DNA from: an uncultured Trueperaceae bacterium
GTDB taxonomy: Bacteria; Deinococcota; Deinococci; Deinococcales; Trueperaceae
Direction: 5' to 3'
DNA: 64,000 nucleotides
Assembly: GCA_963799485.1 (NCBI GenBank)
Contig: CAWCXJ010000006.1
Location: 576,001-640,000 of the forward strand
Part shown: positions 1,250 to 1,632 of the stretch, one piece after another
Numbering within the stretch: the first letter of the stretch is position 1
Layout: each line of letters starts with the position of its first letter
The notes under the pieces: generated by a model
What the model was told of the DNA's origin: nothing
The model's input: only the letters and a program-made list of their open reading frames with translations
Databases searched by the model: none
Translations under genes and position numbers: made by a program

Positions 1250-1412
1250 CAAAAAACAACCCGGAGCGAGATGCTCCGGGTTGGGTACCCGCCTGGTTCT
1301 GAGGACAACTAAAGCCATCTCTCAGGACGAGGCCATGGTCAGTTACCCTCGACGGGTACCTCCACTGGTCTGTTCATTTTGTAAAATTAGGACCACCTCC
1401 TTTCTGTGGTAA
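1250..1412 (-). ncRNA. Candidate structured small RNA or micropeptide mRNA
   Basis: TACAAT -10 just upstream, extended SD-like AGAAAGGAGGTGGTCC, nested stems (GGTACCCG/CGGGTACC; GAGGGTAACT/AGTTGTCCTC) and a terminator. Confidence 0.6.
1251..1283 (-). terminator. Intrinsic terminator of a small minus-strand transcript
   Basis: Perfect 11-bp stem CAACCCGGAGC/GCTCCGGGTTG followed by a T-run on the minus strand. Confidence 0.85.
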
Positions 1413-1632
1413 AAAGATTGTACAGCAAAAGCGCCGTAAAGGTGTAGGGTTTGTTACGTTTTTGTCAGCCGGTTTCCGGTCAACTCGTATAAAGCTCCGC
1501 CAGGGTAGTGCTTAGTGCTGCGCATACAGATTTTTGACCTGCACGTGCTTTCTCAGGGATACGGGATTGCCGATTGAGCGTTGGTCGGGCTCGAGGACAT
1601 CTGCCCCTGGCAGCGCGCTTATACTTTTTCTG

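Follow-up and report, generated by a model that had tools for sequence, protein, structure and literature searches.

Ms_IGR-5 (RF02471) has been catalogued for more than ten years as an actinobacterial small RNA (sRNA), with its function unassigned. The literature that we found under that name, which does not include the original description, gives no function for it, and no paper in the literature searched describes a micro-ORF in Ms_IGR-5 or holds anything relevant on a small RNA of Truepera. The available text of two reports on Streptomyces describes homologues as validated by RNA-seq or as a mapped sRNA transcription unit (PMC8079986, PMC8780764), and the available text of a third reports significant ribosome-protected reads for Ms_IGR-5 homologues in M. 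abscessus and M. smegmatis (PMC4974804).

Here, we describe a related RNA from an uncultured Trueperaceae bacterium, found on the minus strand of a 64,000-nucleotide stretch of genomic DNA that was analysed as a whole and that we refer to as the window. We consider it rather likely that this locus encodes an independently transcribed and translated RNA of the Ms_IGR-5 family in which it is the process of translation and the RNA sequence, and not the peptide, that are under selection. The features of the locus, in the order in which they occur on the minus strand, are as follows.

1442..1458, minus strand: weakly conserved upstream block GTRAC ... YACAC, approximately -49 to -35 from the RNA start
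1417..1422, minus strand: -10 promoter hexamer TACAAT
1251..1411, minus strand: the RNA itself, approximately 160 nt, with a putative start at 1411/1410 (T/ACCACAG...) and its end at the terminator T-tract
1390..1405, minus strand: SD1, AGAAAGGAGGTGGTCC, complementary over 16 nt (one G-U) to the 3' tail of 16S rRNA
1366..1395, minus strand: hairpin P1, TGGTC (1395-1391) with GACCA (1370-1366)
1343..1387, minus strand: micro-ORF of 14 codons plus a stop codon, reading ILQNEQTSGGTRRG
1358..1363, minus strand: SD2, a second GGAGGT, within the ORF and 12 nt upstream of its stop codon
1351..1360, minus strand: P2 5' strand, GGTACCCGTC, within the ORF
1299..1350, minus strand: inner domain, with segments GAGGG (1350-1346), CCTC (1332-1329), CTGAGAG (1325-1319) and CCTCAG (1304-1299)
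1284..1293, minus strand: P2 3' strand, GGCGGGTACC, immediately adjoining the terminator
1251..1283, minus strand: intrinsic terminator, with a stem at 1283-1257 of 11 pairs (8 G-C), a loop of 5 and then TTTTTT

Family membership and distribution

The first-pass annotation of this DNA did not recognise the RNA as belonging to a named family. An Rfam scan revises that view, since its sole match is Ms_IGR-5, found below threshold, with 26.8 bits where the gathering score is 45 (E = 0.0035 for 6 kb searched with 4227 families, and E = 5e-4 in the organism's whole genome). The alignment is full length, running from model positions 1-184 of 184 to window positions 1410-1251, and the conserved blocks and helices occur in the same order. 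When applied to relatives, the same model gives 39.1 bits for a Latescibacterota copy, 30.5 bits for another actinobacterial copy and 74.8 bits for a Streptomyces copy. In the reciprocal search, a model built without Actinomycetia (R1) recovers 17 of the 30 RF02471 loci at the Rfam position (E <= 0.01). Thus, the Latescibacterota intermediates and the reciprocal search bridge the score gap, and, as judged by sequence comparison, the RNA is a diverged member of Ms_IGR-5 that represents a Deinococcota branch of the family.

Homologues were found in Deinococcota and in other phyla: 86 of 101 genomes carry one in Trueperaceae, as do 12 of 101 in the neighbouring (sister) family, 41 of 121 in Latescibacterota and 44 of 151 in Actinomycetota. 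The element was found in none of the 87 genomes from the large genus of the sister family, and the 68 genomes of the Thermus-like family yielded two weak matches in coding-like sequence (E = 0.003-0.008) that are not counted as homologues. On these counts, the element is dispensable in both lineages. Exact pattern matches in the Thermus-like family were discarded because all of them lie within coding sequence; the pattern scan of genome contigs returned at least 120 stretches, and approximately half of the 80 matches listed are chance occurrences in GC-rich coding sequence. The element is present in a single copy in its own 3.66-Mb genome. A culturable Truepera strain probably carries the RNA as well, and M. 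smegmatis and Streptomyces are tractable carriers of the family.

Transcription unit and flanking genes

The span of the RNA is based on the Rfam match, which covers 1251-1410, and on relatives identified by blastn that span the same region. As the first-pass annotation had noted, the minus strand carries its own TACAAT -10 element and an intrinsic terminator at this locus. A -10 element of the form TANNNT is present in 83/83 unique Trueperaceae upstream regions, with the T, A and T conserved at frequencies of 0.94, 0.98 and 0.98 and with variable inner positions, and in 74 of these 83 regions the hexamer ends 16 nt before GGAGG. This comparison of the -10 element alone was used in place of a two-hexamer sigma-70 scan, which returned no promoter. 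Farther upstream, the GTRAC ... YACAC block shows column frequencies of 0.45-0.59 in the same 83 regions, and the sister family has a related TTGTGAC block; the Trueperaceae block may be a -35 region or the site of a regulator. A hairpin comparable to the terminator, with a T-rich tail, is present in 30/30 loci examined. Given the -10 element in every upstream region, the terminator at every locus examined and neighbouring genes that vary, the sequence comparison supports the earlier proposal that the RNA is a stand-alone, independently transcribed unit.

Contigs assembled from RNA libraries of four studies cover positions 1314-1411, some of them with no differences across 61-77 nt; these contigs represent relatives in mixed communities, with DNA possibly among them. 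In one RNA-library run, adapter letters adjoin position 1411. Contig cover is absent at 1423-1520 and 1215-1240, an absence that carries no weight as evidence, and a search of RNA runs by sequence words returned small shares only (0.04-0.05). The X7 pieces at 1161-1203 differ by 3-7 letters and represent a FAD-binding motif of other organisms. One X7 contig continues upstream of 1411 into unlike sequence with its own TATAGT box, so it represents a relative's locus and not a transcript end.

In the window's genus, the RNA is flanked by SCO1 and HemY genes, and in many other genera it is flanked by genes for a 4Fe-4S protein and a convergent BioY. The downstream gene had been called hemG; Pfam searches with its orthologues in three related loci (L002-L004) place it in the FAD amine-oxidase (HemY-type) family instead. 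In the window's genus (L001-L004), the RNA lies approximately 40 nt upstream of this HemY-type protoporphyrinogen-oxidase gene on the same strand, and its leader frame, alternative pairings and terminator resemble a classical attenuator layout. It is therefore conceivable that the RNA is a cis-acting leader of this gene in which translation of the leader frame controls read-through of the terminator, and in the window the CGGGU of the P2 3' strand could indeed pair with the ACCCG of the terminator. However, reading of other loci by eye did not reveal this antiterminator, which would join the P2 3' strand to the 5' strand of the terminator; a pairing that competes with the terminator was seen in the window sequence only, and the antiterminator idea was rejected. 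The neighbouring genes likewise argue against a leader: there is no conserved regulated gene or operon 3' of the RNA on the same strand, since the genes that follow it vary from genus to genus and in many cases are convergent with it (BioY, for example, lies on the opposite strand), and the neighbours in actinomycetes differ and are unrelated to one another. In addition, a -10-like box of the HemY-type gene itself, TATCCT, precedes its ATG by 6 nt, which is a leaderless spacing, and the frame has no run of regulatory codons, with no amino acid repeated beyond Gly-Gly and Arg-Arg. We therefore regard attenuation of the HemY-type gene as very improbable.

Shine-Dalgarno blocks and the micro-ORF

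The first-pass annotation drew attention to a 16-nt complement, with one G-U, to the 3' end of 16S rRNA. The organism's own 16S gene ends in GGATCACCTCCTTTCT, which confirms this pairing over 16 nt with its one G-U. When the 3.66-Mb genome is searched with the full complement, only the rDNA (no mismatches) and the SD1 site (one mismatch) match with two or fewer mismatches; all 10 other genomic sites have three mismatches, versus 7 for a reversed control pattern. The match of SD1 to the 16S tail is beyond chance. The block is also retained in relatives, with AGGAGGTGGT invariant in 30/30 sequences, GGAGGTG-T invariant in 98 sequences from three phyla, and the longer GGAGGTGRTCC conserved across the three phyla. 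The second box is similarly constrained: GTGGAGGT is invariant, and SD2 precedes the stop codon by a constant 12 nt in Deinococcota and by a constant 9 nt in 30/30 actinomycete copies and in 6/6 further Latescibacterota copies.

The frame that had been read as xLQNEQTSGGTRRG from an ATT start is present at 1387..1343, with the codons AUU UUA CAA AAU GAA CAG ACC AGU GGA GGU ACC CGU CGA GGG UAA, and it is a conserved micro-ORF in relatives. The more distant ATG noted alongside it is also present; it is out of frame with the ATT and opens MNRPVEVPVEGN. Among 76 unique Trueperaceae sequences, the start codon is AUU in 38, AUC in 23, AUA in 15 and AUG in none, and this AUH codon lies 6-8 nt past GGAGGU. 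The distance from the start codon to the anchor is 16, 19, 22 or 25 nt, all of which are 1 mod 3, and all indels within the frame are multiples of three. In-frame stop codons are absent from the variable part of the frame in all 76 sequences (0/76), versus 46/76 and 39/76 in the other two frames, and shuffled controls average 27.6 and do not fall below 13. The same frame opens with CUG or UUG in 10/10 copies from the sister family and with AUG in 15/15 copies from Latescibacterota, indicating that a weak start codon is not universal. Actinomycetes have a frame of 12-15 codons that ends exactly 9 nt past the second box in 30/30 copies, and a 1-nt indel shifts their frame relative to that box. 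The conserved AUH codon, the indels that preserve the frame and the lack of stops within it strongly support, at the level of sequence, that the frame is translated.

A Shine-Dalgarno sequence followed by an AUU, AUA or AUC start is the classical layout of infC, whose product, IF3, senses and discriminates against such starts. The infC gene of this genome has an apparent AUA start 8 nt after GGAGG (GGAGGTGA, 5 nt, then ATA).

These data bear on two other accounts of the RNA, both of which had been raised before. The first is that the RNA is a noncoding decoy, which would act through its pairing with the 16S tail only, sequestering or parking 30S subunits and changing how translation is divided between SD-led and leaderless mRNAs, with the frame being incidental. 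The uniqueness of the 16-nt complement in the genome and the retention of the extended block in three phyla are consistent with such a decoy, and weak start codons would lengthen the dwell of the 30S subunit, given what is known of IF3 and of over-long SD sequences. A decoy needs no frame, however, yet every indel that falls between the start codon and SD2 has a length divisible by three, stop codons are avoided in this frame and not in the other two, and the stop codon keeps a fixed distance to the second box in every clade. Stoichiometric titration of ribosomes would also demand a very abundant RNA. We thus consider a decoy without a functional frame to be unlikely.

The second account is that the locus is a true micropeptide gene whose functional product is a peptide of 13-16 residues (...TSGG[TA]RRG). 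Conservation of the frame agrees with this, as does the recurrence of a C-terminal SGG[TA]RRG in Trueperaceae and of GGG[AV]RRG in two sister families. Even so, the peptide is not conserved: the 76 sequences encode 73 distinct peptides, residues 2-6 are free to vary, and the Arg codon that precedes GGG is replaced by Leu, Gln, His or Pro. The motif also depends upon the clade, being TSGG... in some and TREVAA... in others, with Actinomycetia reading the same nucleotides in another frame to give TREVAAR. Furthermore, the third positions of ACC AGU GGA GGU are invariant, which points to a constraint at the level of the RNA that might alone hold part of the frame open. A functional peptide therefore seems improbable to us. 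Of the earlier suggestion of a non-AUG micropeptide mRNA, translation is strongly supported, on the evidence of the AUH start, the threefold indels and the missing stops, and the peptide is not conserved. Taken together, the comparison suggests that being translated, and not the peptide, is the job of this RNA.

RNA folding, a proposed mechanism and comparison with known systems

The nested stems that the first-pass annotation listed (TGGTC/GACCA, GGTACCCGTC/GGCGGGTACC, GAGGGTAACT/AGTTGTCCTC and CCAT/ATGG) are all present on the minus strand, and a 171-nt stretch is predicted to fold with -66.7 kcal/mol versus -49.7 ± 4.4 kcal/mol for shuffled sequences (z = -3.9), with 0/200 shuffles as stable. 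The AU-rich loop of P1 contains the start codon and codons 2-6. P1 has 95% paired cells in 30 sequences with little variation, so its support comes mostly from invariant bases; two sister families have a shifted, complementary counterpart, CCAAC with GTTGG. The P2 5' strand has 94.7% paired cells. A P2 partner with 9-10 of 10 pairs lies directly 5' of the terminator in Deinococcota, in 9/9 Latescibacterota copies and in 7/10 Thermoleophilia-type copies; the same holds for 8 of the 20 anchored actinomycete loci, with the high-scoring copies among them, in a search that left 10 of 30 actinomycete loci unanchored and assigned wrong partners to approximately 12 divergent Deinococcota loci. The P2 helix covaries between phyla, and within Trueperaceae no helix shows significant covariation, with shuffles matching the observed score in 85-167 of 500 trials. 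The four segments of the inner domain can pair either as a nested fold (1 with 4 and 2 with 3) or as two hairpins (1 with 2 and 3 with 4), each with approximately 90% paired cells, and the Trueperaceae alignment, lacking significant covariation, does not choose between the two. In fold ensembles of 79 of 96 sequences, from which rows with mis-anchored or wrong P2 partners were left out, the pairing of segment 1 is distal in 46, proximal in 22 and mixed in 11. The 3' half of the RNA also contains a conserved C-rich stretch, CCCUCA, which is a candidate seed for pairing with other RNAs.

These features suggest a mechanism in which translation opens the RNA. A 5' leader of approximately 10 nt would present an SD block complementary to the full length of the free 16S rRNA 3' tail, and a weak AUU start 7 nt beyond this block (AUC, AUA or CUG in relatives) would open the 14-codon frame. 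This frame crosses, in order, the 3' strand of P1, the second GGAGGU box and the 5' strand of P2, and it stops at the junction of P2 and the inner domain, a fixed 12 nt past the second box. A ribosome on the frame would be expected to melt P1 and P2 and to free the 3' half with its CCCUCA, and the ribosome-free RNA would fold shut. Since the frame overlies strands of both P1 and P2, translation and folding would be mutually exclusive, and the function of the RNA is consequently likely to be ribosome-gated. Comparison among relatives demonstrates the signals of the transcription unit, the homology to Ms_IGR-5, the conservation of the frame and the fixed geometry. From these we infer that the long pairing does serve to bind the 30S subunit. 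Initiation at the weak start codon would presumably be slow and sensitive to IF3, the second box may hold the terminating ribosome, and the ribosome-dependent open form would be the active form, for example in pairing with other RNAs.

A broader reading, which we offer tentatively and regard as doubtful, is that the whole Ms_IGR-5 family in Actinomycetota, Deinococcota and Latescibacterota is a ribosome-gated riboregulator that reports 30S availability or initiation fidelity (IF3 status). Its sensor would consist of the SD to the entire 16S tail, the weak start and an SD2 that holds the terminating ribosome, and its 3' half, with the C-rich stretch, would act on RNAs or proteins only when a ribosome is on the micro-ORF.

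The present analysis extends the Ms_IGR-5 family to two further phyla, Deinococcota and Latescibacterota, and its most conserved property is a tiny frame that combines a maximal ribosome-binding site with start codons that are mostly weak. With translation and folding arranged as mutually exclusive, an anonymous sRNA becomes a testable device. If translation itself is the signal, then this would be a free-standing ribosome-sensing RNA without a tied downstream gene, which is unusual. The locus also serves as a caution that some sRNAs catalogued as non-coding are translated.

The closest described system is Ms_IGR-5 itself, with which the window copy shares a common order of elements, in which (A)AGGAGGUGGUCC in a short 5' leader is followed by a hairpin, a box of the form GUG(G)AGGU and a long-range helix closed just 5' of the terminator. 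A frame of 12-15 codons is found in 30/30 members examined, matching the short frame of the window copy. The window copy differs in that it comes from Deinococcota and not Actinobacteria, scores below the gathering score, has a shorter inner domain of different sequence, starts with AUU and reads its box as GGA GGU versus GAG GUG. The Rfam entry describes a plain sRNA.

A short translated frame, alternative pairings and an intrinsic terminator are also features of leader-peptide attenuator RNAs that are released and act in trans, as the available text on rnTrpL of Sinorhizobium describes (PMC6614838). Unlike RNAs of that type, as portrayed there, the window RNA has no regulated downstream operon or regulatory codons, and its terminator is not visibly involved in alternative pairings. 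The infC initiation region resembles it in that a strong SD precedes an AUU, AUA or AUC start, but infC encodes a full, self-regulating protein, whereas the window frame has 14 codons and a far longer SD. The prfB frameshift site likewise has a box complementary to the anti-SD that precedes a stop codon by a short, fixed distance. That distance is 3 nt in prfB, whereas the 9-12 nt found here corresponds to that from an SD to the P site, and, unlike prfB, the window sequence has no extended frame in the +1 or -1 phase. Finally, sequestering RNAs such as 6S RNA and Ms1, which bind RNA polymerase and are untranslated, offer a parallel in that an RNA mimics the natural ligand of a large machine, which for the window RNA would be the SD of an mRNA for the 30S subunit.

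Locus layout and pairing with the 16S rRNA tail

The RNA is encoded on the minus strand, in the intergenic region between a divergent SCO1/SenC gene (Pfam on L001) and a gene for a HemY-type FAD oxidase. Its elements are, in order:

1422-1417, minus strand: -10 hexamer TACAAT
from about 1410, minus strand: short leader ACCACAG
1405-1390, minus strand: complement of the 16S tail, AGAAAGGAGGTGGTCC
next in order, minus strand: AU-rich hairpin
next in order, minus strand: second conserved block, GTGGAGGT
next in order, minus strand: nested stems
1283-1251, minus strand: intrinsic terminator, 11-bp stem followed by T6

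The RNA is present as a single copy in its own genome, and the fold of this stretch beats all 200 shuffles (z = -3.9). The first-pass annotation had described the minus-strand elements, the pairing with the 16S tail and the fold, and every detail was borne out. In particular, the proposed 16-nt pairing with one G-U is real, because the 16S rRNA of this genome ends in GGATCACCTCCTTTCT. This is the only non-rDNA site in the whole 3.66-Mb genome that lies within two mismatches of the full 16S-tail complement. At three loci from one Trueperaceae genus (L187, L193 and L198), the Shine-Dalgarno (SD) block reads GGGAGGTGATC and matches GAUCACCUCC in the 16S tail perfectly; in these copies, the inner domain (equivalent to 1299..1350) carries a far longer insert of approximately 40-50 extra nt.

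A -10 hexamer of the form TANNNT, with varying inner positions, is found in 83/83 unique upstream regions, and the distance from its end to GGAGG is 16 nt in 74 of these 83. A terminator hairpin with a T-rich tail lies downstream in 30/30 loci. Approximately 35-50 nt upstream of the RNA start there is a weakly conserved block (1442-1458 in the window, and the equivalent place in L271-L280), with the sequence GTRAC...YACAC (Trueperaceae) or TTGTGAC (sister family); in some loci it forms an inverted repeat, e.g. GTAAG-N6-CTTAC. A regulator of the RNA may bind this block.

Distribution, neighbourhood and kinship with Ms_IGR-5

Genomes with a match, by group and search. Counts refer to samples of genomes, and "not found" does not equal absent.
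Trueperaceae; blastn; 86/101 sampled genomes, 34/36 genera, nearly always one copy per genome
Trueperaceae; exact pattern; 94/127
small sister family; exact pattern; 2/19
neighbouring large family; our covariance model R1; 12/101 (small genera 12/14, big genus 0/87)
Latescibacterota; model R1; 41/121
Actinomycetota; RF02471 at E <= 1e-3; 44/151, 20 of them above the gathering score

The contrast between 12/14 in the small genera and 0/87 in the large genus points to lineage-specific loss or strong divergence. In a Thermus-like family, the exact pattern and model R1 gave no convincing match, only 2 weak hits in 68 genomes. The Trueperaceae counts (blastn, exact pattern and frame statistics) include one unpublished genome, G033 (L018); the actinomycete analyses include unpublished genomes G386 (L259) and G416 (L269), and the RF02471 genome count also G369 and G488. 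No claim rests solely on these unpublished genomes.

Across Trueperaceae genera, the 5' 70 nt of the RNA are 75-97% identical, and an alignment of 30 Trueperaceae sequences has 42 invariant columns. The flanking genes change between genera (Pfam, 100 ORFs scanned): they are SCO1 and the HemY-type gene in the window's genus, a divergent 4Fe-4S protein and a convergent BioY in many others, and methyltransferases, GGDEF proteins, MscL or transposases elsewhere. At L010 and L027, DDE transposase genes (Pfam DDE_Tnp_1, DUF772) adjoin the RNA, which indicates that the neighbourhood was rearranged while the RNA was kept. The HemY-type gene has its own -10-like box, TATCCT (1222-1217, minus strand), 6 nt ahead of its ATG (1210-1208), and seems to be leaderless; relatives L002 and L004 have TATTCT and TATCGT at the same spacing. 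Given the variable flanking genes and this separate box, the RNA is not a leader of the HemY-type gene, and the variable neighbourhood likewise counts against an attenuator of that gene. The RNA is instead a conserved, free-standing gene.

The first-pass annotation did not recognise a named RNA family; an Rfam scan corrects this. The only match at E <= 1 is Ms_IGR-5 (RF02471), which aligns over the full length, although its score, 26.8 bits, falls below the gathering score of 45. An exact-pattern scan with one genome per species located both conserved blocks, identically arranged and with the promoter in the same place, in Latescibacterota (at least 9 loci), Miltoncostaeaceae and other Thermoleophilia (at least 8), Gaiellaceae (at least 2) and a further actinobacterial MAG. 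Scores under the Rfam model are 39.1 bits for a copy from Latescibacterota and 74.8 bits for one from Streptomyces. In the reciprocal direction, R1, which was built solely from Deinococcota, Latescibacterota and Thermoleophilia sequences, recovers 17/30 bona fide RF02471 loci at the Rfam hit position. The exact-pattern loci, the intermediates scored by Rfam and the recovery by R1 argue for homology rather than chance. Thus, on comparative sequence evidence, the RNA belongs to the Ms_IGR-5 family, at a distance; since that family is already in Rfam, the RNA is of a known kind. In the literature searched, we found no description of an extension of Ms_IGR-5 to Deinococcota and Latescibacterota, nor of a family-wide micro-ORF, a full-tail SD or a fixed spacing between second SD box and stop.

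Two published studies report RNA-seq validation of the S. lividans member (PMC8079986) and a small RNA transcription unit with mapped ends for the S. avermitilis member (PMC8780764). Among the RNA runs searched, none contains the organism itself. Many soil and biocrust RNA libraries hold small shares of the query words, and contigs from four RNA libraries (four studies) cover 1314-1411, the conserved 5' half. Some RNA-library contigs are identical over 61-77 nt, and the match is directly adjoined by sequencing-adapter letters at 1411, 1402 and 1392. This pattern fits short, abundant RNA fragments of close relatives; contigs cannot prove transcription or ends.

A conserved open frame

An ATT 8 nt after GGAGG had been proposed to open the frame xLQNEQTSGGTRRG-stop (1387..1343, minus strand), and its start codon, indels and stops identify it as a conserved frame across Trueperaceae. 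For the frame statistics we used 85 loci, or 76 unique sequences, which are related and not independent trials. In the unique sequences, AUG is never found at the start position, which is AUU (38), AUC (23) or AUA (15) and stands 6-8 nt downstream of GGAGGU, with a spacer that varies by single nucleotides. In 6/85 loci a stop codon stands immediately upstream in frame, which rules out an earlier start. The distance from the start codon to the GTGGAGGT anchor is 16, 19, 22 or 25 nt, differences that are all multiples of three. The variable part is AU-rich (35% G+C), and in-frame stops occur in 0/76 sequences versus 46/76 and 39/76 in the other frames; 2000 shuffles of this part gave a mean of 27.6 and a minimum of 13 sequences with in-frame stops. 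Without translation, it is hard to account for the four length classes and for such a difference between frames, and the frame statistics count against the RNA being a pure decoy for 30S subunits. A second proposed frame from a more distant ATG (MNRPVEVPVEGN-stop) did not hold up: several close relatives lack the ATG, and this frame is among the two with stops.

Start codons of the equivalent frame are CUG or UUG in the sister families, AUG in 15/15 Latescibacterota copies examined, and UUG or GUG in Thermoleophilia. A 12-15-codon frame is present in 30/30 actinomycete RF02471 loci, where the first in-frame candidate start is CUG (10), UUG (8), GUG (4), AUH (6) or AUG (2), a few being ambiguous. 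Owing to a 1-nt deletion, the second box is there read as GAG GUG, not GGA GGU, and a compensating insertion puts the stop back at the equivalent GCUAG site. Significant ribosome-protected reads on Ms_IGR-5 homologues are reported for M. abscessus and M. smegmatis (PMC4974804).

The frame shift between clades counts against a functional peptide: in Actinomycetia, the nucleotides held in common are read in a different frame, as ...TREVAAR-stop. In Trueperaceae, codons 2-6 are unconstrained (73 distinct peptides in 76 sequences), and several genera have a Leu, Gln, His or Pro codon in place of the Arg codon preceding GGG. In 98 sequences, ACC AGU GGA GGU is invariant at its third codon positions, which shows constraint at the RNA level. 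These alignments indicate that the peptide is not the conserved entity.

Geometry of the RNA and a possible mechanism

The micro-ORF starts in the loop of P1 (hairpin 1366..1395), continues across the P1 3' strand (GACCA), the second box GGAGGU (1358..1363) and the 5' strand of the closing helix P2, GGUACCCGUC (1351..1360, pairing with 1284..1293), and stops at the junction of P2 and the inner domain. The second box lies 12 nt from the stop in Deinococcota and 9 nt in 30/30 actinomycete and 6/6 further Latescibacterota copies. At such a spacing, the 16S tail of a ribosome whose A site holds the stop codon could pair with the box.

In the cross-phylum comparison, P2 is the sole helix with clear compensatory change, and its 3' strand always adjoins the terminator.

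Strands of P2 by group.
Deinococcota: CCCGUC with GRCGGG
Latescibacterota: GCUGUC with GACAGC
Thermoleophilia: GCAGUA with UGCUGC
Gaiellaceae: CCAGCG with CGUUGG
some actinomycetes: ACUGCG with CGCAGU

Within Trueperaceae, the helices are approximately 90% paired versus 31-51% with partners slid, and covariation inside these helices is not significant. The inner segments GAGGG, CCUC, GAGRG and CCCUC permit a nested or a two-hairpin fold; predicted ensembles for 79 sequences are distal in 46, proximal in 22 and mixed in 11.

The strongest possible SD is combined with mostly weak start codons, a frame whose sole conserved property would be staying open and which occupies the 5' strands of both helices, and a second SD box apparently positioned to hold a terminating ribosome. 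Such an arrangement fits an RNA that takes its conformation from ribosome occupancy. During translation, P1 and P2 would be open, and the 3' half with its near-invariant CCCUCA would be free; when untranslated, the RNA would be closed.

In the same genome, the gene for IF3, infC, appears to start with ATA, 8 nt after GGAGG (GGAGGTGACGTTT-ATA; L283:1993-2020, contig C7, minus strand). The alignment to the family model begins with model position 3 at codon 3, and the next in-frame ATG lies 12 nt beyond the ATA, 20 nt after GGAGG. In E. coli, the infC-type start layout is sensed by IF3. Since the apparent AUA layout of this infC is like the layout sensed in E. coli, the micro-ORF may, by analogy, be sensitive to IF3 as well.
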